A stretch of 64,000 nt of DNA from Candidatus Cloacimonadota bacterium (GCA_029553545.1 JAKPKU010000170.1:4621-68620); one strand, 5' to 3'. Shown: positions 2 to 64,000, counted from the first letter of the stretch. Translations and numbers: made by a program. Notes: a model not told the origin generated them from the letters alone.

Positions 2-961
2 CTCAACAATACTCAGTATACACTTGCTGACCTTGTGCAACATAAAGTAATATCGCCTGCTGTTTATGTTTATCGTGATAATAAATATATTGCTTCAGAC
101 ATCATTTATGGGCATGAAGCCTTCTTTGTTTATACAAATTTAAATAATGCAACAAGTCTGATCTGTAACTTTACACCATACTATGACGGCGCTCGAGAGA
201 TTAGCAAACCTGAAATTGCTTGGACTGCAAAAATAAATATTATCCAACAAGATAGAGATGAGATTGTATTTGGTGTTAGTAATCACAAAATAGATGGTGT
301 CGATTTTATATTAGACTATCCAGAAGCGCCTGTAAAGAATCTTAACAATAATCTATCCTTCTATTTCCCTGTAGATCCGGAAGAGAATAACTACTCTTTT
401 AGCAGATTAAACCGATATCTCTACACTCCATTTAGCAATACAGATGAAGAAACAAAGGAATGGCACTTTGCTATAGACGTCAATGAATTATCTCCTATTA
501 CTCTGCAAGCAGACTTGTCAGACTTGCCAACTGGCTATTCAGTAAAAATAAATTTAAGTGGACAAACCTATGTGTTAAATGCAAATTCCCCTGAAATAAC
601 TTTTACCCCTGATGAAATTGGAACAATCAATGGTATTCTTATCGTTGGCAATCAATTTGTAAGTAGTGATGAACATATCGCAAAACCTTTCACTGTCAGT
701 GCTTATCCAAATCCATTTAATCCTATTACAAATATTGCCTTCAATCTTGCTACAGCTTCTGAGATTGAGATTAATATCTATAATATCAAGGGGCAAAAGG
801 TCACTACTATTATCAATGATAAATTACGTGCAGGCAATCATGTACTTCAATGGAATGGTAAAGATAAAAATGGCAAAGCATGTGCCTCAAATATCTATTT
901 TGCACAGGTTAAACTCAATGGAAAGCAGAGCGTAATCAAAAAGATAACTCTGCTAAAATAA
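2..961 (+). CDS. T9SS C-terminal sorting domain protein, 5' end cut by the window edge
   Basis: The frame is open from base 2 with no upstream stop, so the GTG at 35 is unlikely to be the true start. The last ~85 aa (YPNPFNPITNIAF..INIYNIKGQKV..LQWNGKDKNGKACASNIYFAQV) resemble a type-A Por/T9SS sorting tail. A hairpin terminator follows. Confidence 0.75.
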   Translation, partial: LNNTQYTLADLVQHKVISPAVYVYRDNKYIASDIIYGHEAFFVYTNLNNATSLICNFTPYYDGAREISKPEIAWTAKINIIQQDRDEIVFGVSNHKIDGVDFILDYPEAPVKNLNNNLSFYFPVDPEENNYSFSRLNRYLYTPFSNTDEETKEWHFAIDVNELSPITLQADLSDLPTGYSVKINLSGQTYVLNANSPEITFTPDEIGTINGILIVGNQFVSSDEHIAKPFTVSAYPNPFNPITNIAFNLATASEIEINIYNIKGQKVTTIINDKLRAGNHVLQWNGKDKNGKACASNIYFAQVKLNGKQSVIKKITLLK

Positions 962-9651: not shown

Positions 9652-10320
9652 TCATTCAAGCAAATCTATCTCTACAGGCTCACTTTCTTCTTTATTATCT
9701 ATTTTATTGTCATTATCTTTCATAAAATCAAGAGACTTTTTGCTCTCTAAAGGCGTTTTGCTCAGTGATACAAACTTCACATTTTGTGATGAAACACGCA
9801 TACCCAGCGAGTATAAGAGCGATCCTTTCATCAACTTTGCCAGGCTATTAAACTGTTTGAAAATACTCATAATAAACTCAATGCTCATATCCTTAATCAG
9901 CGTCCCATAGCGCTTTTGAGCACGATATACAAAATATATAAACATACTAAATGCAGAGACGCCCTGAGTCCGCTTTTGCCTGGTATTTATCTTATAAATC
10001 TTCGCATAATCGGCAAATAAAGACTTTATCGGCAAGTCCATACCTTGCCACAATGCACATAAATAGGGCTGATTATTTTTGATAGCGATATTTTGCGGCA
10101 AAATAGCCCTCTTCACGGGCTTACGTAGGATCACCACATTATTATTGGCATAATACGCTAAGATACTCTCGCCGATCCTCTTCGGAAACTTATGGTCTCC
10201 CGTCAAATAAACTCTCAATTTCCCTCCCTTTCTTCTGATAAAACACTTTTTTTCTACTCTAATTCCCTTGACATTCCCCTTGCTATCTTGGAGAATGAAC
10301 GGAAAACTAAAGGACATCAA
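9652..10320 (-). CDS. Hypothetical basic protein; gene status and start uncertain
   Basis: 222-aa ORF with no recognisable family. It has a TTG/ATG start without a Shine-Dalgarno site, unlike its neighbours. Its first ~25 codons overlap copy C of dispersed repeat X. Confidence 0.35.
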   Translation of the reverse strand: MMSFSFPFILQDSKGNVKGIRVEKKCFIRRKGGKLRVYLTGDHKFPKRIGESILAYYANNNVVILRKPVKRAILPQNIAIKNNQPYLCALWQGMDLPIKSLFADYAKIYKINTRQKRTQGVSAFSMFIYFVYRAQKRYGTLIKDMSIEFIMSIFKQFNSLAKLMKGSLLYSLGMRVSSQNVKFVSLSKTPLESKKSLDFMKDNDNKIDNKEESEPVEIDLLE

Positions 10321-10340
10321 ATAGTAATGTAAAGAGATTA
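10262..10340 (+). repeat. Dispersed repeat X, copy C (partial and degenerate)
   Basis: It shares the core cccttgacattccccttgctatcttggagaatgaa and the distal aatgtaaagagatt with the copies at 63133-63207 and 43994-44065 (the latter in reverse orientation). Confidence 0.7.
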
Positions 10341-10402
10341 ATAGCTATCTTTTAAAAGATACTTTTAATATAATAATCAGATTTTTATTCTTTGCCAATA
10401 AA

Positions 10403-11620: not shown

Positions 11621-11676
11621 TGCTTCGCTGCACAACTAGGGGAAGACAGAACTGAGAGCTGAGAACTGAGAGCTGA
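11621..11676 (+). repeat. Partial REP copy followed by a 2 x 14-nt tandem repeat
   Basis: tgcttcgctgcacaactagggg matches the first ~22 nt of the right REP. It is followed by gaactgagagctga twice, and gaactgagagct recurs at 57217. Confidence 0.7.
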
Positions 11677-11779
11677 GTTGGCTGGTAATTTCATTTCATG
11701 AAATTGTTAGGTTGCTTTTGAGCGCGGCCGAGACGGGCGCACCCAATTCTGTCAATAAGCGATAGATTTTTTTCTGAAA

Positions 11780-11866
11780 TTAGCTTCGCTGCACAACTAA
11801 GGATAGTTGTGGGTACGTTTAAAAAAATCTGCCGATTTTTTTAAACAATACCCGCAGCGAAGCAAA
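11780..11866. repeat. REP-like composite palindrome, right copy (inverted relative to the left copy)
   Basis: ttagcttcgctgcacaactaaggatagttgtgggtacgtttaaaaaaatctgccgatttttttaaacaatacccgcagcgaagc is the reverse complement of 10674-10760, apart from about 4 substitutions. Confidence 0.85.
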
Positions 11867-11913
11867 AGCTCCCTCCAATTTCACTGCGTGAAATTGAAGA
11901 TTGACTCTATTTA

Positions 11914-12083
11914 CTTGTTCGTAGTTGTCCATCGCACGTATACAAATAAGGCTATTTGTATTTACAAAGCCAGATTATTGGGAATGAGAGATTTCTTTTT
12001 GGCTTGTTCGTAGTTATCCATCGCACGTATACAAATAAGGCTATTTGTATTTACAAAGCCAGATTATCGTGAATGAGAGATTA
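11914..12083 (+). repeat. Direct tandem duplication, 2 x 89 bp
   Basis: cttgttcgtagtt(g/a)tccatcgcacgtatacaaataaggctatttgtatttacaaagccagattat.. occurs at 11914 and again at 12003. Each copy contains the hairpin tacaaata/tatttgta. Confidence 0.85.
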
Positions 12084-12116
12084 TTAAAAAGAAGTCGCAA
12101 CATCCTTTAAAAAAAC

Positions 12117-12239
12117 CTTTCACAAATGTGAAAGCTCCTAACCCGCAGCGAAGCGAGGACCCTAACCTTCGACGAAGTCGAAGTACCTAACCTTTACGAA
12201 GTAAAGTACCTAACCCGCAGCGAAGCGAGGACCAAAAGG
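12117..12239 (+). repeat. Mini-array of short GAA-loop hairpins punctuated by CCTAACC
   Basis: CCTAACC occurs 4 times (12137, 12161, 12186, 12209). The copies are separated by 16-18-nt units: cgcagcgaagcgagga (twice), ttcgacgaagtcgaagta and tttacgaagtaaagta. The hairpin ctttcaca/tgtgaaag precedes the array. Confidence 0.75.
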
Positions 12240-12569
12240 TGTGTTGTTCAAAAAAAAGTTGATTGTCTTGGTCTGTGTGCCATGGAACTGTTTGCCAAAG
12301 ACTTTAAACCTAAGTGTGTTGCAGTGTGTTGTTAAAAAAAAAGTTGATTGTCTTGTTCTGTGTGCCATGGAACCGTTTGCCAAAGACTTTAAACCTAAGT
12401 GTGTTGCAGTGTGTTGTAGTGTGTTGCAGTGTGTTGTTAAAAAAAAAGTTGATTGTCTTGACCTGTGTGCCATGGAACTGTTTGCCAAAGACTTTAAACC
12501 TAAGTGTGTTGCAGTGTGTTGTTAAAAAAAAAGTTGATTGTCTTGACCTGTGTGCCATGGAACTGTTTG
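12238..12569 (+). repeat. Tandem array of about 85-bp units, 4 copies (76, 85, 105 and ~66 nt)
   Basis: The unit is gtgtgttgcagtgtgttgttaaaaaaaaagttgattgtcttgNNctgtgtgccatggaacYgtttgccaaagactttaaacctaa. Unit starts are at 12238, 12314, 12399 and 12504. The third unit carries a 20-nt internal duplication. Confidence 0.9.
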
Positions 12570-12707
12570 TGTTTTGTTATAGTGTGTTACCGTGAGTTGT
12601 AAAATAAAAAATCACCTCTAAACCCGCTTGTAATAGTCATCTGCTGATTTAGGTGAAAATAGTTTTCAAAAAACACCATTTTTTAAGCCCTATATATATA
12701 GAGGGTG
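12570..12707 (+). repeat. Dispersed repeat Y, copy 1
   Basis: The core cacctctaaacccgcttgtaatagtcatctgctgatttaggtgaaaatagttttcaaaaaacaccattttttaagccctatatatatagaggg recurs at 63339-63430. Its 5' half recurs at 57300-57337. Confidence 0.8.
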
Positions 12708-12814
12708 TTGTTCCGAGATGAGAATATTTCTGAGCATGTTCATCATTATATAAAAAGTGTTGACAAAAAATGATGATTTAATATTTTAAACACAATACTT
12801 GAATAAGGGATAAT

Positions 12815-43889: not shown

Positions 43890-44140
43890 TACGAGGCTTT
43901 TGCATAATCTCATAATAAAAATTTGCTCAATCATCATAACAACAAAATATAATAGAGGCTACTCTTTTCTCTTTCAAAAAAATCATAATAAATCTCCTTT
44001 TCACTCCCTTTAGATTCCTATAAGATTACCTTTCATTCTCCAAGATAGCAAGGGGAATGCAAGGGTAGCCCAATAGATAATTTACTGTTAAATAGTCAAA
44101 TACAACAAAGAGAAAAAAAATCAAAGAAAAGAGAGAAAAA
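43890..44140 (-). repeat. Dispersed repeat X, copy A (reverse orientation relative to copy B)
   Basis: The reverse complement aligns with 63050-63310 over about 250 nt. The alignment includes the long hairpin core (43994-44065) and gagattatgcaaaagcctc. Confidence 0.75.
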
Positions 44141-44311
44141 CTGAGTAAAAAAGTGGAAATATTGGATTTTTTTTGCAATTATTTATGTTTAAAAAAAGAT
44201 TTTTAGCCTCTATATTTTTCAAAAAAGGAAGATTTAGCTTTCAGATCTACTGTCACTATATACCGTGAAATGCTTTATTGTTTACGAATTACAAATAATT
44301 AATAATATTTG

Positions 44312-55684: not shown

Positions 55685-57196
55685 ATGAATGTCATACCAA
55701 AAATCGTAAAGTATCCAGAGAAGGGGAGCCCTTGTTCTATTGCAAGTAACTGGGTGATTGGAGCCCCTTCGGCTTTAAAGAAATATGCTTTGATGCTACA
55801 TGCAGATTTAAAAGACATCTTGGGACTGGAGCTTAAATTTAACAATAGTAAAACCAGCGAGGCAATCAAGCTAAAGTTGAACACGAAAGCTTGCAGCGAG
55901 GCAGAATCTTTCAATATCGCTTTTTATGAAAACTCAATTGAATTAATAGGGCATGATGAGCAAGGCTTATTTTACGCTATACAAACCTTGAAACAAGTTT
56001 TGCTTACGCACGGTAATAATATTGCAGCGTGTTCAATACACTCAATAAAAGGATATTCTTGGCGGGGAATGCACCTCGATGTGAGCCGCCACTTCTTCCC
56101 CATTCCTTATCTCAAAAAGCTCATTGATTTGATGGCATTGTTTAGACTCAATCGCTTTCATTGGCATTTGACCGACGATCAAGGCTGGCGGATTGAAAGT
56201 AAAAAGTTCCCTCTATTACATAAAATTGGCTCTTGCCGTGACGAAGAGGGCTATAGAGAGCCGCAATATTATACGCAAGAAGAGATTAAAGATTTTGTTG
56301 CATATGCAGAAGAACGCTTCGTCGAGGTAATACCTGAAATCGATATGCCTGGGCACACACAATCAGTTTTGGCTGCCTATCCTAACTTGTCATGCACGGG
56401 TGAACCAACACAGACATGGACCAAATGGGGCGTTTCTGAAGATGTTTTGTGTATGGGCAGGGATAGTACATATGAATTTGTAGAAGAGCTCTTAAATGAG
56501 GTGATTCCGCTCTTTAAAAGCAAGTATTTTCATATTGGTGGAGACGAATGTCCTGATACTGCTTGGCAAAGCTGTCCACATTGCCAAAAAAAGAAAGACG
56601 AGCTTGGGCTGCATGACTTCAGGGCTCTGCAACATCAATTTACAAACTTTTTATCTGAAGTATTAAAAAAGCATGATAAAATCATGATTGGCTGGGACGA
56701 AATAACTGAAGGTCAGCTGCCAGATAATACCGTAGTCATGGCATGGCGTGGCAATGCTGGGAAAGCAGCTGTTAATGCGATCTCACAAGGGAAAAATGTG
56801 ATTTTCACACCTAATAGTAGCTATTACCTCGACTGGCGTCAGTCAGATAAAGAAGGGGAGCCTGGCGGCTTTGGCGTCACAGATCTAAAAAAAGTCTTTC
56901 AATATGACCCACAAGAAATTATCAAAATTGAAGAGCTACAATATACTCACAATTCAACAAAAAGTGATTTGAAACTTTATTTTGATATTAATAAATGCAC
57001 AGATTATTTCTTAGGTATTCAGGTTAATCTCTGGACAGAACGCATTCACAATGAAAAAGAGCTGAAATATATGCTTTTCCCACGATTGTTAGCGCTGGCT
57101 GAGCAAGCGGACAGCCGTTCTACAAATAAAGATTATATTGAGTTTAGCAAACGAGCAGAAATCATCATGGAAAAGGTTTTAAATCATTATTTGTAA
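55685..57196 (+). CDS. GH20-family beta-N-acetylhexosaminidase
   Basis: Motifs RGMHLDVSRHF, FHWHLTDDQGWR and HIGGDE. The ATG directly abuts the preceding stop. Confidence 0.85.
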   Translation: MNVIPKIVKYPEKGSPCSIASNWVIGAPSALKKYALMLHADLKDILGLELKFNNSKTSEAIKLKLNTKACSEAESFNIAFYENSIELIGHDEQGLFYAIQTLKQVLLTHGNNIAACSIHSIKGYSWRGMHLDVSRHFFPIPYLKKLIDLMALFRLNRFHWHLTDDQGWRIESKKFPLLHKIGSCRDEEGYREPQYYTQEEIKDFVAYAEERFVEVIPEIDMPGHTQSVLAAYPNLSCTGEPTQTWTKWGVSEDVLCMGRDSTYEFVEELLNEVIPLFKSKYFHIGGDECPDTAWQSCPHCQKKKDELGLHDFRALQHQFTNFLSEVLKKHDKIMIGWDEITEGQLPDNTVVMAWRGNAGKAAVNAISQGKNVIFTPNSSYYLDWRQSDKEGEPGGFGVTDLKKVFQYDPQEIIKIEELQYTHNSTKSDLKLYFDINKCTDYFLGIQVNLWTERIHNEKELKYMLFPRLLALAEQADSRSTNKDYIEFSKRAEIIMEKVLNHYL

Positions 57197-57216
57197 TCTA
57201 AGGGCAATGGTATTTT

Positions 57217-57337
57217 GAACTGAGAGCTTATTTGGTCCTCGCTGCGCAGCGGGTGAGGATCAAAATCGTGCGTTGCAGTGGTTTGTTAAATAATAAATCG
57301 CATCTAAACCCGCTCGTAGTAGTCATCTGCTGATTTA
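57217..57337 (+). repeat. Repeat cluster: gaactgagagct motif, REP-like GC hairpin and the 5' half of repeat Y (copy 2)
   Basis: ggtcctcgctgcgcagcgggtgaggatc is a hairpin related to the acccgcagcgaagcgaggacc units at 12.1-12.2 kb. It is followed by gtgcgttgcagtggtttgttaaataataaatcgcatctaaacccgctcgtagtagtcatctgctgattt. Confidence 0.7.
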
Positions 57338-57424
57338 TAAATATCTTGATTAGAAGTTTATACAGGAAGAACCTCCCCTTTATCATCCTGGTAACAAACG
57401 TTTAAACCGAAGGTATAAAGGACA

Positions 57425-59614
57425 TTACTTTAGTATCATCATTTTCCCTGAGATAATCTCCTGATCAGAATCAGCTCTGTAAAGGTATAGACCACTTGAT
57501 ACTGCCTTACCATTCATATCTTTCTTATTCCAGACAAATTCACTACTACTATCTTTTTTTACCTGATTGCTTATTTTATTAACCAACTGCCCTTTTATAT
57601 TATAGATAGAGATGTTCTTGACTTTGGTATTGTTTTTAATTAAAAATCTTACCTGGTCTGACCTGCATGGATTAGGATAGACAGAGATGGTTGATGGTTT
57701 TACAAGTGTCTGATCATCAGTTGATACAGTATAATCAAAACTGTAGAGATTGACTCCAGAAGAAGCTATACTAACTATTCTTTGTTGATCAAAATATATA
57801 TAGTACATAGCATTACGATTTTCATTGATCTCTCCGACCTGACTAAACATTCCATTTCCAATATAGTAAACTAATGCTGTCTCAGAGTCAAAATCTTTAA
57901 CTACTGATGTTTGGTTATATATTGTTGAAACACTCAATAAATCTTTTGTCATTTGATCAAGAAATGTGATAGAATGATCAGTGTAGTTATATAATTTATT
58001 TATATATTCTGAAATTGTTATAAAAATCTCATCATTCACGAAATATGCTCCATATTCAATACCACTAATTATCGGTGTTTCGTACATAATAGTAACAGGA
58101 TCATGCTTATCTCTAAACTGAAGTTTATTATTGTTTTTAAATATCAATAAGTTATTATGCGAATAAGATTGGTTTGAAATGTGTTGACTTTGTATTGTAT
58201 ATAAGAATTCTAACTCCGTATTATTAAAAGAATAAATATCCGTTGAGAAAATACCATTATTAACTTTGTTAAATAGAATTAAACTATCAATAATAGAGAA
58301 ATCATAATATGAGACATTGAGTTGATTTGAACAAACAAGAGATAAATTTTCTGAGCTAATATTGTAAATGTCAAAAAAGTTAGTGTTATCTATTCTATAC
58401 TTTAAGTATAAAGAGTTGTTTTTAATATCAAAATCGACAATATTAAGATCATTTTTGACATTCTCTTTACTCAGGATGATTTGATTATTATCAAACACAG
58501 AATGAAAAATAAATTGATTATTTGCAACATCATATACTCCAATATAGCCATTTTTATACATAGCTCCTTGTGCATTTAATCCGTACTTAGATAATAATTC
58601 AGTATTGTATTCAATATTATAGGTATTTATGCTCATATAAGCATTTCTGTATAAATAAGGATAGTGAAGGCATAAGCTTCCTGATTGAACATGATATTGC
58701 CCGTCTTCGGTATATAATAATGATTGGTCTGAAATATTGTATACATCAAATCTGTTTTTATGATCGACGGTATAAATATTTCCATCATGTATAAGTGCAT
58801 CTGTATAGTAATCATTACTTTGGGATGGGTTATATTTATGAAAAACAGTGGCAATGGAATCCAAATCACTTATGTTGAGCACCGTAATTTCGTGATGCCC
58901 TAATAAAAAAAGATTATCCCCTTCAATTTTCATATTAAAAAGAACACCTCCATTGCCAGTACTCCCAATAATTTCTTCATGAATATAATTATTATTATCA
59001 AACTGATCTAAATCTTCTATCATATGATAGAATCTTAATGAAAAAAATTCAGTGTTGTTTATAATAAAACTCCCATAACAAACTAATAGTGAATCGCTTA
59101 TAGTAATCAAACCAAATAGATTGTCAATATAACCATCGAAAGATAAATTGTGTTTGTTTATTTTTAATGTCCTCTCATGTTCATTGTCTGCCAAAAGAAT
59201 ATAATGATTAGATATTGATGGTCTAAAATTATTGTTTTTAGAGATATTAGTGTCGATCTTTGCAATAAATTGCATTGGTGACACACTGATATTAAATACA
59301 TTAATAAGATAAGAATCTTCATCTTGGTCAAAGAAATACAAGGAATCCCCTGAAACAAATGCAGTATTAATACCAATACCTTTTTTCTCATAAAACGAAA
59401 TTCTATCCAATGCACCATTAGTGTTTATCTCAAATTCTTCGATCATACCTTCACTTTCAACATACAATCTGTTTTGATACTTATTGATTGATCCTGAGTA
59501 GTTTGAATAGTCCAGTACCCTGCTATGATAATTAACATTACTGATGTTGGCTATATGTTGTGCATTTAACAAAGTAAAGACACCTAAGATGATTATAAAT
59601 ATTATTTTCTTCAT
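57425..59614 (-). CDS. T9SS-sorted large repeat protein, paralogue 1 (possible beta-propeller)
   Basis: Signal peptide and recurring strand-like repeats. The C-terminal tail is VYPNPCRSD..NISIYNIKGQLV..WNKKDMNGKAVSSGLYLYR. Start at 59614 (MKKIIF) behind ggagg. Confidence 0.75.
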   Translation of the reverse strand: MKKIIFIIILGVFTLLNAQHIANISNVNYHSRVLDYSNYSGSINKYQNRLYVESEGMIEEFEINTNGALDRISFYEKKGIGINTAFVSGDSLYFFDQDEDSYLINVFNISVSPMQFIAKIDTNISKNNNFRPSISNHYILLADNEHERTLKINKHNLSFDGYIDNLFGLITISDSLLVCYGSFIINNTEFFSLRFYHMIEDLDQFDNNNYIHEEIIGSTGNGGVLFNMKIEGDNLFLLGHHEITVLNISDLDSIATVFHKYNPSQSNDYYTDALIHDGNIYTVDHKNRFDVYNISDQSLLYTEDGQYHVQSGSLCLHYPYLYRNAYMSINTYNIEYNTELLSKYGLNAQGAMYKNGYIGVYDVANNQFIFHSVFDNNQIILSKENVKNDLNIVDFDIKNNSLYLKYRIDNTNFFDIYNISSENLSLVCSNQLNVSYYDFSIIDSLILFNKVNNGIFSTDIYSFNNTELEFLYTIQSQHISNQSYSHNNLLIFKNNNKLQFRDKHDPVTIMYETPIISGIEYGAYFVNDEIFITISEYINKLYNYTDHSITFLDQMTKDLLSVSTIYNQTSVVKDFDSETALVYYIGNGMFSQVGEINENRNAMYYIYFDQQRIVSIASSGVNLYSFDYTVSTDDQTLVKPSTISVYPNPCRSDQVRFLIKNNTKVKNISIYNIKGQLVNKISNQVKKDSSSEFVWNKKDMNGKAVSSGLYLYRADSDQEIISGKMMILK

Positions 59615-59656
59615 GATTACCTCCAATAAATGTGATTAGTAAAAGATGGCGGTCAA

Positions 59657-59827
59657 TTAGAATTCTCTGTCTATGTAGAAATCAAAACGATTTACATTTT
59701 GCACACTGGCACTTTTTGTTACGCCATGGCATGTAACTGTAACGGTTGAATAGACACATGGGTCGAAGTAATCTTCAACAGGTGTTGTATAAAATCCATC
59801 TGATCCTGTATAGTATAGTATAATCAT
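59657..59827 (-). pseudogene. Truncated copy of the small secreted protein gene, fused to the cassette leader
   Basis: The product, MIILYYTGSDGFYTTPVEDYF..VTVTCHGVTKSASVQNVNRFDFYIDREF, matches only the C-terminal 50 aa of the 130-aa protein at 62219-62611. It lacks a signal peptide. Confidence 0.65.
59808..59822. repeat. Pentanucleotide microsatellite (GTATA)3
   Basis: gtatagtatagtata lies immediately 3' (in the coding sense) of the ATG at 59827. Confidence 0.9.
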
Positions 59828-59887
59828 GATTATCTCCTGCATCACCACTATTTCAAATTATTGCCTGTCCAGTAGGCAACTGTGCTA

Positions 59888-59915
59888 ACAATACATTGGC
59901 AAGCAAAGCTGTCAA
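59888..59915 (-). promoter_or_regulatory. Cassette promoter, copy 1
   Basis: On the minus strand: TTGACA, 16 nt, TATTGT. It is a duplicate of the promoter at 62820-62847. Confidence 0.55.
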
Positions 59916-59969
59916 GAAATATTTAAAATGATTGATATTGTATTGTAAGTATTAAAAGTATAAAGGACA

Positions 59970-62168
59970 TTACTTTAGTATCATCATTTTCCCTGAGATA
60001 ATCTCCTGATCAGAATCAGCCCTGTAAAGGTATAGACCACTTGATACTGCCTTACCGTTCATATCTTTTTTATCCCAGATAAACTCAATGCCATTCCCTT
60101 GTTTTGCTTCATTACCTAATTTATTGACTAATTGTCCTTTTATGTTATAGACAGAGATGTTTTTGACTTTGGTATTGTTAGTAACTGAAAATTTTACAAG
60201 GTCTGACCTGCATGGATTAGGATAGACAGAGATGGTTGATGGTTTTACAAGTGTCTGATCATCAGTTGATACAGTATAATCAAAACTGTAGAGATTGATT
60301 CCGGAAGAAGAACTGCTTATCATTTTGTTAAGATCCGGGTAGTAATAATCACTTGATGCTACTCTGGATTCAAACACACCAATTTCATTTAATGCCCCGT
60401 TTCCTACGTAATAAATATTTCGTGACGAGGAGTTATAATTGTATATACTTAGTATTTCATTATACAATGTCAATAGGGCATCTGAGTATTGATAGTTAGC
60501 AGAAAAAGTGGGGGTTAGATTGTTATTATTTATATTAAAAATCTTTAGGTATCTATATCGGTCACTCAAAGCTATATAATCCTGATTGATAGGAATCACA
60601 CTATGAGTCCCATAATTATTTGGAACCTGAACAGGGTAGGAAAAAAGAATATTTTCAGGGGCATTGATATCTCTGAAGCATAAATACCCATTATTATAAG
60701 TATAAATATATTCATTACTTAAGTAACCAGAGCTTAATTGTTGAGATCCATTGAATGTGCAGTAATATTCGATATCGTTTCCTGTTATCCGATAAACCCT
60801 GGTAATGAAATTCTGCCCTGTATAACAATCAAAATAAATATAATCACCAATAATATCAAACCATGAGGGAGGGTATGTGTCAAATGTAATGGTATTAATT
60901 AATTGTAACTGATTTTCTGAAAAGCCATAAATCTCCAAAAATGTCTGCCCGTTAATTTTTAGTCTGACATATAATTTCCCTTCATAAACATCAATGTTTA
61001 AAAATCTTTCAACTCCTTCTTTATAAATAGAATAATGCATGTTATCGAAAATGGAGTAAAAGTTTAGGTATTTATTGATCGGATCGTATGTCATTGCATA
61101 ATTATCCTTATAAGCAGAATATAAGTAATGAATCCCATACTTTCTTACGCATTGGATGTTATCTTCTATTTGATATTGAGCCAAAAAATGATCATTATTA
61201 CTGTATAAGTAAGGATAATTAAGACAGAATGTCCCATACTGTATATTGCCTGTATTTTGTTCCTGATAAACAAGAGTAGAATTTTGAATATCATAGACTT
61301 TTATCTGAGAATTTATATCTGCTGTAAAAAGCTTATTATTAATCAGTAATGCATCGGTATAGTAAAACCAGTAAGATGGAGTAGAATTATGTAGTGTATA
61401 AATTGTATGCAGATTTGATATATTATGAATATCAAATACCTTGATGTAATCAAAACCTAAAACATATAGCAAATTATCTTTATGTTTTAAATAGACTATA
61501 TCAAGCTCTTCGTTATCTGATAATACTTCCTCGTGAAAGAAACCATTCGGATAATTTATATTCTCCTGATTCAAATTGAAAAAACGAAGACTATAGATTT
61601 CGTTATTCCCGTTATTTATACTACCATATAAAATCAATACAGAATCCACAACCGTAAAGATGCCATAAATATTTTGATGTTCCCCTTCGTAGTCTAATGT
61701 AAATCTGTTTAGTTTTCTGATTTTTTCATGTTCATTGTCTGACAATAAAATATAATGCTTGTATATGGCTTTAGTCATTGAATACCATCTGTTGATTTCT
61801 GTATCAATAGTGCCAACAAATCTCATGGGGCTGACAGAAATATCTATGACTGACATTAAGTAACTATTGTCATCCCTCTCAAAGTAATAAAGGGAATCAC
61901 CTTCAATAAATGAAGTAACTCCAGTTAATTGACCCTTTTCCAGAAAACTGATTCTCTCCAGATTACCGTCAGACATTATATTATATTCTTCAATCTTTCC
62001 TTTATTTTCAACATATAAATGGTTGTTATGCATGTTAACGGCACCATTGTATGAATCATAATCTACGATATGCCGATCAAGACGGATATTGCTTATTTGT
62101 GTAATTTCTGCAGATAATGAGATAATAAATAGAAATATCCAAGCGACACCTATTATGATTTGTTTCAT
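59970..62168 (-). CDS. T9SS-sorted large repeat protein, paralogue 2
   Basis: 732 aa and colinear with paralogue 1. The middle is divergent, and the last ~115 codons are nearly identical at the nucleotide level. RBS aaggag. Confidence 0.75.
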   Translation of the reverse strand: MKQIIIGVAWIFLFIISLSAEITQISNIRLDRHIVDYDSYNGAVNMHNNHLYVENKGKIEEYNIMSDGNLERISFLEKGQLTGVTSFIEGDSLYYFERDDNSYLMSVIDISVSPMRFVGTIDTEINRWYSMTKAIYKHYILLSDNEHEKIRKLNRFTLDYEGEHQNIYGIFTVVDSVLILYGSINNGNNEIYSLRFFNLNQENINYPNGFFHEEVLSDNEELDIVYLKHKDNLLYVLGFDYIKVFDIHNISNLHTIYTLHNSTPSYWFYYTDALLINNKLFTADINSQIKVYDIQNSTLVYQEQNTGNIQYGTFCLNYPYLYSNNDHFLAQYQIEDNIQCVRKYGIHYLYSAYKDNYAMTYDPINKYLNFYSIFDNMHYSIYKEGVERFLNIDVYEGKLYVRLKINGQTFLEIYGFSENQLQLINTITFDTYPPSWFDIIGDYIYFDCYTGQNFITRVYRITGNDIEYYCTFNGSQQLSSGYLSNEYIYTYNNGYLCFRDINAPENILFSYPVQVPNNYGTHSVIPINQDYIALSDRYRYLKIFNINNNNLTPTFSANYQYSDALLTLYNEILSIYNYNSSSRNIYYVGNGALNEIGVFESRVASSDYYYPDLNKMISSSSSGINLYSFDYTVSTDDQTLVKPSTISVYPNPCRSDLVKFSVTNNTKVKNISVYNIKGQLVNKLGNEAKQGNGIEFIWDKKDMNGKAVSSGLYLYRADSDQEIISGKMMILK

Positions 62169-62182
62169 GAATTACTCCTTAT

Positions 62183-62211
62183 AAAAAGGCGGCCAGATTT
62201 ATCTGGCCGCC
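62183..62211 (-). terminator. Intra-operon hairpin terminator or attenuator
   Basis: On the minus strand: ggcggccaga-taaa-tctggccgcc followed by ttttt. It sits between the small gene stop (62219) and the RBS of the 732-aa gene. Confidence 0.7.
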
Positions 62212-62218
62212 GATTTTG

Positions 62219-62611
62219 TTAGAATTCTCGGTCTATGTAAAAATCAAAACGATTTACATTTTGAACAGATTCTGTTCTTGAAATTCCATGACATGTTACT
62301 GTAACATTAGAATAGTCAGCAGGGTTATAGTAAGCTGAAACAGGTGTTGTATAAAATCCATCTGATCCGCTTGCTAATGTTTCTATAACATCTAAGGAAC
62401 TATTAGTTCGGTGTTCGATTACAACAACCACTGCTTCTCCGCTTTTAGCTCTCCATTGTGGGATGCTGGAATGATTTGGGTAATAGGATTGATATACATA
62501 ACCACGGATTTGACCAGGGATATCTCTTGAAGTCTGTACTGTGACTGTATCTGCACTAAGTAAGCATATTGCAAATACAACGATCATAAGGGTAATAAGT
62601 GACTTTTTCAT
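62219..62611 (-). CDS. Small secreted protein, possibly with a carboxypeptidase-regulatory-like (transthyretin-like) fold
   Basis: Signal peptide MKKSLITLMIVVFAICLLSA. The pattern IRGYVY..A.V.V....SGSDGFYTT resembles CarboxypepD_reg-type domains. RBS ggagg. Confidence 0.6.
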   Translation of the reverse strand: MKKSLITLMIVVFAICLLSADTVTVQTSRDIPGQIRGYVYQSYYPNHSSIPQWRAKSGEAVVVVIEHRTNSSLDVIETLASGSDGFYTTPVSAYYNPADYSNVTVTCHGISRTESVQNVNRFDFYIDREF

Positions 62612-62687
62612 TATTCCTCCATTTATAATTTTTTGTTTAAAGAAAGTTTTGGGTAAAATGAAAGCTAAGTAAATTTATTATGCGTTC

Positions 62688-62756
62688 CTATAAATAAATT
62701 ACTTCTAAACGAGCTGATCCCGTATAGTATAGTATAGTATAGTATAGTATAACCAT
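62688..62756 (-). other. 22-codon leader ORF containing the microsatellite
   Basis: The strong RBS aaggag lies 6 nt before the ATG at 62756. It translates as MVILYYTILYYTGSARLEVIYL. Its first 14 codons parallel the start of the fused pseudogene in the other cassette. Confidence 0.4.
62722..62751. repeat. Pentanucleotide microsatellite (GTATA)6
   Basis: Six perfect gtata units begin 2 codons after the ATG at 62756 (in the coding sense, TATAC x6). Confidence 0.9.
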
Positions 62757-62819
62757 GATTATCTCCTTAATCATCACCACTATTTCAAGTTATTGTCTAT
62801 CCAGTAGACAACTGTGCTA

Positions 62820-62847
62820 ATAATACATTGGCAAGCAAAGCTGTCAA
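62820..62847 (-). promoter_or_regulatory. Cassette promoter, copy 2
   Basis: On the minus strand: TTGACA, 16 nt, TATTAT, about 60 nt upstream of the leader ATG. Confidence 0.6.
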
Positions 62848-63049
62848 GAAATATTTTAAATGAATAACATTTTATTGTAATTAAATATATTATTATGTGA
62901 TTTATGCTTTATAATCTAAGAACTTTGAATTAGAAAACAGACAATAAGATGGAATTGCATAAAAAGTTAAAACAACATTTAAAAATGACAGCTTAAAAGT
63001 TGCCTCATTTTCCTATTAAAGAGGGTACAATAAAACACAAAAACGCCTG

Positions 63050-63310
63050 ATATCAGGTCTGTTTTCCCTTCTTTTTATTCATTATCTATTCAATCTTGTA
63101 TATGACTATTTTTCAGATATATCCCTTTGTGACTCCCCTTACATTCCCCTTGCTATCTTGGAGAATCAAAGAAATTCTTATAGGAACCTAAAGGGAATGT
63201 AAAGGAGATTTATTTTGAATATTTAAGGTATAGAAAAAATATGTAAACTTTTAGTAATGAAATGATGATTGTTAAATTTGTAATTTGAAGATTATGCAAC
63301 AGCCTCAAGG
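63050..63310 (+). repeat. Dispersed repeat X, copy B (most complete)
   Basis: It contains a long imperfect hairpin at 63133-63207: ctcc-cc-ttacattccc...gggaatgtaa-a-ggag, with inner stems ctat/atag and agaat/attct. It aligns with the copy at 43890-44140 in reverse. Confidence 0.75.
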
Positions 63311-63430
63311 TGTGTTGTCTTATGTTGTGTTAAAAAAACCACCTCCAAACCCGCTTGTAGTAGGCGTCTGCTAATTTGGTTGAAAATAGTTTTCAAAAAA
63401 CTCCATTTTGTAAGCCCTATATATAGAGGA
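63306..63430 (+). repeat. Dispersed repeat Y, copy 3
   Basis: gtgtgttgtcttatgttgtgttaaaaaaaccacctccaaacccgcttgtagtaggcgtctgctaatttggttgaaaatagttttcaaaaaactccattttgtaagccctatatatagagga. It directly abuts repeat X copy B. Confidence 0.8.
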
Positions 63431-63581
63431 CGATGTTTTTATTTAAGATTCTGCTTTATTCTTTACAAGTTGTTTTGAATTACTGTGTAACAGTCTCATC
63501 TCGTGTTGTTAAATAAATCTAAAGAAAAAAAATGTTGACTTAAAAGAGTTGTTTGTAAAAAATGATTAAGAAGGATGGTTT

Positions 63582-64000
63582 ATGCAAAAGATAAGTATAA
63601 AAGATTATAAGAATTTGAAAAGCTTGACGCAAAAGAAGTACAGAAAGCTCTATAGAAAGCTAATTGTCGAGGGTGAGAATACTATTTTTCAGTTGCTTGA
63701 CAACGACAAATCATTTGATGCAATCTATATTACAGAAGCTTATGCAAAAAACCACTACCGATATTTAGAAAAACATATCACTAAAAGTGAAATAAAAGAG
63801 CGAATTAGGCTAATTGATGAAGCCAAAATAAAAGAAGTCACAGACACTGAAAACCCACAAGATATCATTGCTTGCGTTAGCTTTGAGCCCACACCAATAA
63901 ATGAGAATGGGACTCTTCTATATTTAGATGGCATACAGGATCCTGGCAATATGGGTACTATTTTGCGAACAGCCTTGGCTGCGGGCATTGATGGCGTATT
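63582..64000 (+). CDS. TrmH/SpoU-family RNA 2'-O-methyltransferase, 3' end cut by the window edge
   Basis: The frame is open from the ATG at 63582 to the window end, so it is absent from the ORF track, which needs a stop. The SpoU motif 1 region is LDGIQDPGNMGTILRTA. Confidence 0.75.
   Translation, partial: MQKISIKDYKNLKSLTQKKYRKLYRKLIVEGENTIFQLLDNDKSFDAIYITEAYAKNHYRYLEKHITKSEIKERIRLIDEAKIKEVTDTENPQDIIACVSFEPTPINENGTLLYLDGIQDPGNMGTILRTALAAGIDGV

Follow-up and report, generated by a model that had tools for sequence, protein, structure and literature searches.

The cassettes and their proteins

The DNA analysed here is a 64-kb window of Candidatus Cloacimonadota sequence, meaning the whole stretch from whose first nucleotide all coordinates are counted, and the subject of this text is a pair of tandem cassettes in it, the large genes of which encode type A cargo proteins of T9SS (type IX secretion system). 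Both genes lie on the minus strand, head to tail, and open reading frame (ORF) calling places their stop codons at 57425–57427 and 59970–59972, that is, 2545 nt apart. Gene A (57425–59614) encodes 729 residues from the likely ATG at 59614, or 733 if the upstream TTG at 59626 is used; gene B (59970–62168) encodes its 732-residue paralogue. The two genes have in common a 353-nt tail, which in A (57413–57765) consists of a 28-codon linker, the sorting domain and 12 nt past the stop, and which in B occupies 59958–60310. Upstream of B stand a small partner gene (62219–62611) and a leader (62737–62883), both on the minus strand like the leader of cassette A (59808–59951). At the tandem junction (59952–59969, minus strand), the 12-nt tail past the stop runs straight into the beginning of the second unit.

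An earlier note, which had been made from the sequence alone, described the cassettes as lying at an offset of exactly 2545 bp. This offset holds at the 3′ ends, where the stops are, but it is 2562 at the 3′ end of the small gene and 2929–2932 in the leader, and the units measure about 2.93 kb (cassette B) and 2.54 kb (cassette A). Their sizes are unequal because cassette A has a deletion of approximately 350 nt flanked by GGATCAG microhomology: both GGATCAG sites are still present in cassette B, and the ~350 nt between them are missing from cassette A. Through this deletion what is left of the small gene, its last ~50 codons, came to continue the short ORF of the A leader in frame. The resulting chimeric ORF (59657–59827, minus strand), which begins with the start of the leader's upstream ORF (uORF), is annotated as a 61-residue gene in the JGI metagenome contig L016. 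The claim that the downstream cassette keeps only those last ~50 codons was correct; the last 150 nt of the small gene (62219–62368) match 59657–59806 at 81% nucleotide identity, and the rest of the gene is absent from cassette A.

Both large proteins score above the curated cut-offs of PF18962 (27 bits) and TIGR04183 (23 bits), with 35.5 and 36.5 bits for A (E 1.3e-8 and 3.6e-9) and 35.0 and 36.7 bits for B. Their hydrophobic N-termini, MKKIIFIIILGVFTLLNA followed by Q in A and MKQIIIGVAWIFLFIISLSA followed by E in B, read directly as Sec signal peptides, and a helix at residues 2–18 in the AlphaFold2 (AF2) model of B would fit such an N-terminal signal. Judged by these signals, A and B are probably cell-surface or secreted proteins. 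A T9SS may be present in Cloacimonadota (PMC11285876). The only other sorting tail in the window closes an ORF at 35–961 (plus strand); it is T9SS-like and has 35% identity to that of A, which indicates that the genome encodes additional T9SS cargo whose tails are unrelated.

For B, the AF2 model built on a seven-sequence alignment is all-beta (pLDDT 78.4, pTM 0.72), and the top matches found for it by Foldseek in the PDB are WD-type double propellers in tandem, Utp21 (4nsx) and DDB1 among them (E ~1e-17). The family profile matches designed propellers, WD propellers, and the C-terminal domain of PorU (6za2). For the bodies of A and B, a tandem beta-propeller is predicted from these results. 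Word-indexed protein searches returned only a handful of relatives, and few additional members when a 54-sequence profile was used; with a full profile search, the number of cluster representatives at E < 1e-30 rose to 128, of which about 100 are full-length (720–770 residues). The family is thus sizeable, fast-diverging, and unannotated. A protein with 100% identity to A, P0007, was found on one contig only. Pattern scans of metagenomes and genomes gave six stretches only, so that the survey of paralogue numbers is thin. The GC content of the bodies is 27.5% in A (57766–59626) and 30.2% in B (60311–62168), with 36.4% for the window and 39–40% for the neighbouring glycosidase genes.

Divergent bodies, similar tails and the mosaic of gene B

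In a global protein alignment A and B are colinear and strongly diverged, as the earlier note had observed, with identities of 41% overall, 33% in the body and 84% in the 112 C-terminal residues. Nucleotide identity in 30-codon windows ranges from 0.38 to 0.67 over the first ~615 codons and from 0.76 to 0.94 over the last ~115. The last 353 nt are 90% identical between the two genes and consist of two near-perfect blocks that flank a 76%-identical middle. In the ungapped register of +2545, block 1 (57413–57523), which includes the 12 nt past the stop, differs from B at 2 of 111 positions, the middle (57524–57654) at 31 of 131, and block 2 (57655–57765) again at 2 of 111, being perfect over the 99 nt from 57655 to 57753. 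The length of the longest perfect run (permutation P = 1.8e-4) and the contrast of the middle with the flanking blocks (Fisher P = 5e-11) are both significant. Beyond 57766 the identity drops to background, a collapse that takes place within ~10 nt; once aligned, the genes hence show a sharp boundary instead of uniform divergence. Both blocks had been seen in the earlier note and taken to cover the sorting tail, which applies to block 2 only in part, since this is mostly the 28-codon linker in front of the sorting domain, plus only the first ~9 codons of that domain.

Synonymous and non-synonymous changes were compared along the genes by the method of Nei and Gojobori. Within the body, the proportion of synonymous differences (pS) is 0.72 and thus saturated, the non-synonymous divergence (dN) is 0.71, and the ratio of dN to synonymous divergence (dS) is below 1. 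Along the tail, dS is 0.04 in block 2, 0.87 in the middle and 0.11 in block 1. A third family member, P0009 on contig L023 from another genome, is 42.9% identical to A in the body and 53.6% in the tail, and the corresponding values are 31.7 and 50.0% for B with P0009 and 32.8 and 83.9% for A with B; other family pairs with 32–43% body identity have tails that are 50–56% identical. At the protein level, the tail consequently groups A with B, and the body groups A with P0009. This incongruence, together with the pattern of dS, indicates that A and B are old lineages whose tails were made alike recently. A general homogenisation of neighbouring sorting tails was rejected, as the tails of adjacent cargo genes in L023 share 34% identity.

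Related strains, which were compared via metagenome contigs, yielded three haplotypes. The C-type (L001–L006, L018, L021, L022) has one cassette, the large gene of which is 94% identical to B, and an intact convergent XerD-like gene lies 20 nt past it. In L001 this gene scores 326 bits against TIGR02225 (XerD); in the window only its last 25 codons persist as a convergent remnant (57333–57407, plus strand; tblastn 64% identity, E 5e-6), which shows that the flank has been rearranged. To the D-type belong L013–L015, L019, and L020. The flanks of L019 agree with those of the window at 96% on either side, with SpoU and Dus upstream and with GH20 and GH38 downstream, and between them lies a single cassette, in which a B-like body (89.5% nucleotide identity) is joined at the block-2 boundary to an A-type tail that differs from that of A at 6 of 353 positions and continues into the sequence found downstream of A. 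The tandem type is represented by the window and L016. From the comparison with L019 it follows that the window equals L019 plus exactly one 2545-bp unit or, equivalently, that L019 has the form that a crossover between both tails would produce.

With L001 as strain C and L019 as strain D, the numbers of tail differences in block 2, middle and block 1 are 1, 4, and 1 between A and D, 6, 0, and 20 between B and C, and 2, 31, and 2 between A and B. The middle of the tail of B (60069–60199) is thus identical to that of L001 (0/131), and the two blocks match A and strain D. Site patterns in the triplet A, B, and L001 are in line with this: in the blocks, 16 sites unite A and B against C and 4 unite B and C against A, whereas in the middle all 31 informative sites unite B and C and other patterns are absent. 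Along the tail these sites form runs, with six sites uniting A and B within 57683–57702, then 32 uniting B and C from 57654 to 57512, and then ten uniting A and B from 57506 to 57433 with one exception. The grouping of A with B inside the blocks, the dS of the blocks far below that of the saturated body, and the sharp boundary are features expected of conversion between paralogues.

Nevertheless, the divergent middle of the tail is one of many C-type patches that were imported into B. At 466 variable sites, B sides with C in 303 cases and with D in 144, and 15 states are private; a run of ~1.4 kb (62436–61036) is 99–100% identical to C, and the next ~0.7 kb are 93–99% identical to D. B is a fine-scale mosaic of two alleles present in co-occurring strains. 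Because the middle is a patch of the L001 kind and the whole tail of A is of the L019 type, the two-block pattern probably does not outline conversion tracts between A and B. The mosaic described in the earlier note thus holds, but as a trace of exchange between strains that followed an earlier equalisation of the tails. Contigs of related strains end inside the tail (L013–L015, L018, L020), as is expected where the population is heterogeneous.

Leaders, the (TATAC)n repeat and the small partner gene

The two leaders are 89% identical, in agreement with the high similarity of promoter and leader regions reported in the earlier note. In that of cassette A, a promoter-like site is combined with a hairpin and a Shine-Dalgarno site, and (TATAC)3 occupies 59808–59822. 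The best sigma-70-like site of the region, TTGACA-16-TATTAT at 62847–62820 (11/12), is found in the leader of cassette B, and the second best, TTGACA-16-TATTGT at 59915–59888 (10/12), in that of cassette A. A 3-nt indel (ATT; 59829–59856 in A, ~62770–62800 in B) sets the spacer of a second promoter-like site, TTGAAA-GATAAT, to 16 in A and 19 in B; it is polymorphic among D-type strains, and L014 has the state of A. The A and B leader hairpin seemed to carry a compensatory change (TTGCCT..AGGCAA versus TTGTCT..AGACAA), but it was rejected as a candidate since it is not conserved in L001.

Just past the Shine-Dalgarno site, in the arrangement AAGGAGAT-N5-ATG, the B leader contains a uORF (62688–62756, minus strand), which has 22 codons in the window and encloses the pentanucleotide repeat (TATAC)6 (62722–62751, minus strand; detected with TRF). 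This repeat is hypervariable between strains: it has six copies in the window and nine in L016 (from 6834 onward), which is the same strain, and 4, 4, 6, and 7 copies in D-type contigs that show 100% identity from the small gene on; all C-type contigs have five copies, and cassette A has three. The copy number of a 5′ short repeat thus varies among near-identical strains, as it does in contingency loci, and the counts indicate that (TATAC)n changes its length far faster than point mutation proceeds. The uORF is seen in all three frames, each ending 53–93 nt before the ATG of the small gene. Neither of the two ways in which such a repeat could act as an on/off switch, a frameshift in a gene or a change of promoter spacing, was observed here, the repeat lying downstream of the best promoter-like site and inside the uORF. 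It may, however, affect expression indirectly. The variable (TATAC)n in a leader uORF is a new feature reported here; the more distant locus in L023 has neither the repeat nor the uORF.

The small gene encodes a 130-residue protein with a signal peptide and a predicted all-beta fold, for which Pfam gave no match in the window copy and for which a single-sequence AF2 model was not usable (pLDDT 46.6). A homologous protein of 117 residues adjoins the family member P0003 in L007, where it follows P0003 (E 1e-16), and a counterpart of 128 residues, with a CarboxypepD_reg match below threshold, is encoded upstream of P0009 in L023. The signal-peptide protein is therefore a conserved partner of the large propeller gene. 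A patch of ~100 nt in the middle of the small gene (62336–62436) is 60% identical between the window (and L001) and D-type strains, with 86–95% in its surroundings, so that hypervariability extends to a segment of the partner protein as well. A strong terminator-like hairpin (62188–62211, minus strand) of 10 pairs, 8 of them GC, followed by a T run, separates the small gene from B and directly precedes the ribosome-binding site of B; cassette A retains only its 3′ half (59640–59660), and a comparable hairpin occurs in L023.

Two dispersed intergenic repeats were noticed. The first, R1 (~110–180 nt), is about 80–93% identical between copies and occurs in several Cloacimonadota contigs, among them the window (63332–63505, 12603–12712, 57281–57337) and L007 (300–474, 10640–10760, 12257–12436); it has no match in Rfam, and its fold is not significant (z = −0.22). 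Copies of a second repeat (63058–63306, 43893–44144, 10264–10342) are 74–80% identical, and the copy upstream of the leader of cassette B includes an inverted repeat that is long and imperfect. The stretch 11648–12712 is repeat-rich and gene-poor, with tandem units of 85–105 nt (96–97% matches) and of 89 nt, and pieces of it recur in L007. The idea that a third cassette tail had left a relic upstream of this leader of cassette B was rejected (best local alignment 34, shuffle maximum 41). No tRNA or tmRNA genes were found in the window.

Recombination at the locus, rival explanations and known systems

We consider it likely, with a probability of roughly 80%, that recombination within the genome and between co-occurring strains reshuffles this locus, the paralogous cassettes of which diverged anciently. 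The conserved ends would serve as homology anchors for RecA-type recombination, with the leader and the 3′ part of the small gene as the 5′ anchor and the 353-nt linker-plus-sorting tail as the 3′ anchor. Via these anchors, divergent bodies could be gained, lost and patched, and the expression and secretion signals would be kept. The simplest course of events would start from a D-like background in which both tails were of one type over all 353 nt; very recent imports from a co-occurring C-type strain would then have replaced stretches of B, among them the 131-nt middle of the tail. The shared tail itself probably stems from crossover or conversion between the tandem tails, that is, either from a Campbell-type gain or loss of a 2.5-kb unit or from conversion, and the diversity might be under selection, for example by phage or substrate. 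Exchange between strains can be read directly from the mosaic of B, whereas repeated conversion within one genome is suggested indirectly. In substance, the data support one of the two alternatives of the earlier note, homogenisation of tail and expression signals, with recombination as its cause.

Several points weigh against this reading. Only three haplotypes were recovered, all of them from metagenome assemblies, in which mixing of strains could distort the consensus contigs and, with them, the counts of the repeat, and the body of A is known from one strain only. The placement of A and B at the surface or outside the cell is a prediction from the sorting domain and the signal peptide within a 64-kb window. 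With an identity of only 89%, the leaders were homogenised to a lesser degree than the tail or at an earlier time. The main ORFs show no evident influence of the repeat, as the uORF ends upstream of them in every frame, the fold of the leader RNA is not significant (z = −0.84), and no Rfam family was found for the leader or the dispersed repeats, whether in the whole window at gathering thresholds or in 57000–64000 at E <= 1. Moreover, intragenomic conversion and a single crossover are not separated by these data, because the native tail of B may have equalled that of A.

Two more specific histories can be considered for the shared tail. According to the first, which is quite possible although we give it somewhat less than an even chance, a single event was responsible: an A unit, made up of tail, leader, truncated small gene and A body, entered a single-cassette locus of the D-type by Campbell-type integration at the tail, or the reverse deletion gave rise to the single-cassette strain. 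The duplicated tail would then be the mark left by this one event instead of a sign of continuing homogenisation. The window and L019 differ by precisely one unit between similar flanks, 4 nt distinguish the two copies of the tail once the imported middle is set aside, and the homology starts and stops exactly at the unit boundaries. However, the 5′ ends of the units are 8–19% diverged, so that the unit, taken in its entirety, does not represent a recent copy; a donor with an A unit is not known, and no circular or excision junction was observed. The second history, to which we give tentative credit of about one in three, is strict concerted evolution on one chromosome by repeated non-reciprocal conversion between the tandem tails and leaders, with the blocks as separate tracts. 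It would explain why B sides with A over its orthologue in L001 at 16 sites in two blocks, why the B-like gene of the D-type carries A-type sequence further into the middle (10 sites uniting A and D against B, 2 uniting B and D against A), and why leaders of the D-type share several A-specific states, including the 3-nt deletion in L014. The same pattern would nevertheless result if the native tail of B equalled that of A and a C-type patch was then imported, as the identity of the middle to L001 and the many other patches suggest, and donor and recipient cannot be polarised.

The remaining explanations are far less probable. An assembly artefact, either a collapsed repeat or a chimera of the alleles of two strains, has to be considered because all data are short-read metagenome assemblies, several strains co-occur and contigs break in the tail; but L016 shows the same tandem arrangement over 16.6 kb with one single-nucleotide polymorphism and one repeat-length difference from the window, the identical blocks are at most 111 nt long, and the stretch that the B–A junction has in common with the end of A, only 12 nt, would not suffice for a k-mer misjoin. 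An artefact of this kind, which the earlier note had named as a possible refutation, is therefore very improbable. We attach hardly any probability to the alternative raised there, a tandem duplication of recent date with a diversifying exposed body, whether accelerated by positive selection or by targeted hypermutation: the unit boundaries are as in a tandem duplication and the bodies are unusually AT-rich, yet pS is saturated with dN/dS below 1, in its body A resembles P0009 of another genome more than it resembles B, and no reverse transcriptase or other diversifier is found among the neighbouring genes. Purifying selection on the secretion signal without recombination is just as hard to credit, for although the sorting domain is constrained and protein identity peaks there in all family pairs, dS is near zero in the blocks and 0.87 in mid-domain, block 2 is mostly linker, the 12 identical nt past the stop are non-coding, and other tails of the same genome and family are only 35–56% identical.

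Two dedicated systems were rejected as well. A diversity-generating retroelement target does not fit, since the divergence spans the whole 620-codon body and not a short variable region; no reverse transcriptase was present among the called genes within 10 kb on each side, and no template-like repeat was found. A site-specific cassette system of the tyrosine-recombinase type would have to rely on the 25-codon XerD remnant, the intact L001 copy of which looks like a housekeeping XerD, and no significant common sequence that could be a recombination site was detected at the upstream cassette boundary.

Under the favoured explanation, recombination among tandem cassettes and co-occurring strains, the locus is of a recombining surface-protein kind that is already known, here in a new phylum and a new protein family. 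The suggestion of the earlier note that this is a surface-variation locus gains support from the inter-strain mosaic, the presence or absence of cassettes and the variable (TATAC)n, with surface exposure itself being predicted only. A bolder version, which we regard as unlikely, is a dedicated contingency system in which tail and leader act as portable homology arms, bodies are swapped, duplicated, or excised among strains, with a 2.5-kb unit coming or going by crossover from tail to tail, and the uORF repeat tunes or switches expression of the small protein together with the propeller; frequency-dependent selection, driven by phage or substrate, would be plausible in this case. If this were true, it would be the first phase- or antigenic-variation-like system described in Cloacimonadota, with a uORF-embedded repeat as the switch in an uncultured, non-pathogenic anaerobe, and if the repeat modulates expression, the logic of contingency loci would extend from host-associated pathogens to an environmental anaerobe.

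Cloacimonadota are abundant and uncultured in anaerobic digesters, and to our knowledge almost nothing is known about their surface biology and strain-level dynamics. The locus shows that co-occurring strains exchange DNA at a very fine scale in a gene for a predicted secreted protein, and it suggests that a T9SS sorting tail can double as a recombination anchor, through which very different cargo bodies could be moved with secretion kept. In practical terms, cassette number, allele mosaic, and repeat length could serve as a marker for strain typing, and recombination at the locus would explain why assemblies break there.

In its logic, the closest analogue appears to be the bab family of Helicobacter pylori. 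In the paralogous surface-protein genes babA, babB, and babC, conserved domains at the N- and C-terminus enclose a middle that diverges, chimeras between them arise by intragenomic homologous recombination (gene conversion), and a 5′ short repeat varies in length through slipped-strand mispairing (PMC4552749). The Cloacimonadota cassettes likewise have conserved ends around a divergent middle, and a 5′ repeat of variable length. The bab loci are dispersed, however, whereas the cassettes are in tandem; the conserved 3′ part is an outer-membrane barrel there and a T9SS sorting tail here; and the CT repeat of bab lies in the coding region and switches the frame, in contrast to a pentanucleotide in an upstream uORF with no switch evident.

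Among T9SS cargo genes, the best comparison is probably with kgp, rgpA, hagA, and other variable surface proteins of Porphyromonas gingivalis, which undergo domain rearrangement and inter-strain allelic exchange and form mosaics unrelated to the genome phylogeny (PMC5266723). They share with the genes described here the conserved C-terminal domain of T9SS cargo and the allelic exchange. They belong to another phylum and to protease and adhesin families instead of a beta-propeller family, the exchanged parts are adhesin modules, whereas the breakpoints here are at and within the linker and sorting tail, and no leader repeat is described there to compare with (TATAC)n in the uORF.

In Neisseria, the opa genes for surface proteins carry a repeat of the pentanucleotide CTCTT at their 5′ end, which is subject to variation by slippage, and recombination takes place among the paralogues. 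In opa, the repeat is part of the coding sequence of the signal peptide and sets the frame of the gene itself, unlike the Cloacimonadota repeat in a separate uORF that ends 53–93 nt upstream. A further resemblance is to LVIVD propellers (PF08309) with T9SS tails, which the earlier note had guessed for the body: the fold agrees, as the model of B is an all-beta tandem propeller and the distant family members P0094, P0158, and P0160 match PF08309, but the family assignment stays a conjecture, as neither A nor B matches PF08309 at E <= 1. The locus thus differs from the bab and gingipain systems in its phylum and protein family, in the tandem arrangement with presence or absence of cassettes, in the position of breakpoints at or inside the sorting tail, and in the repeat within the leader uORF.

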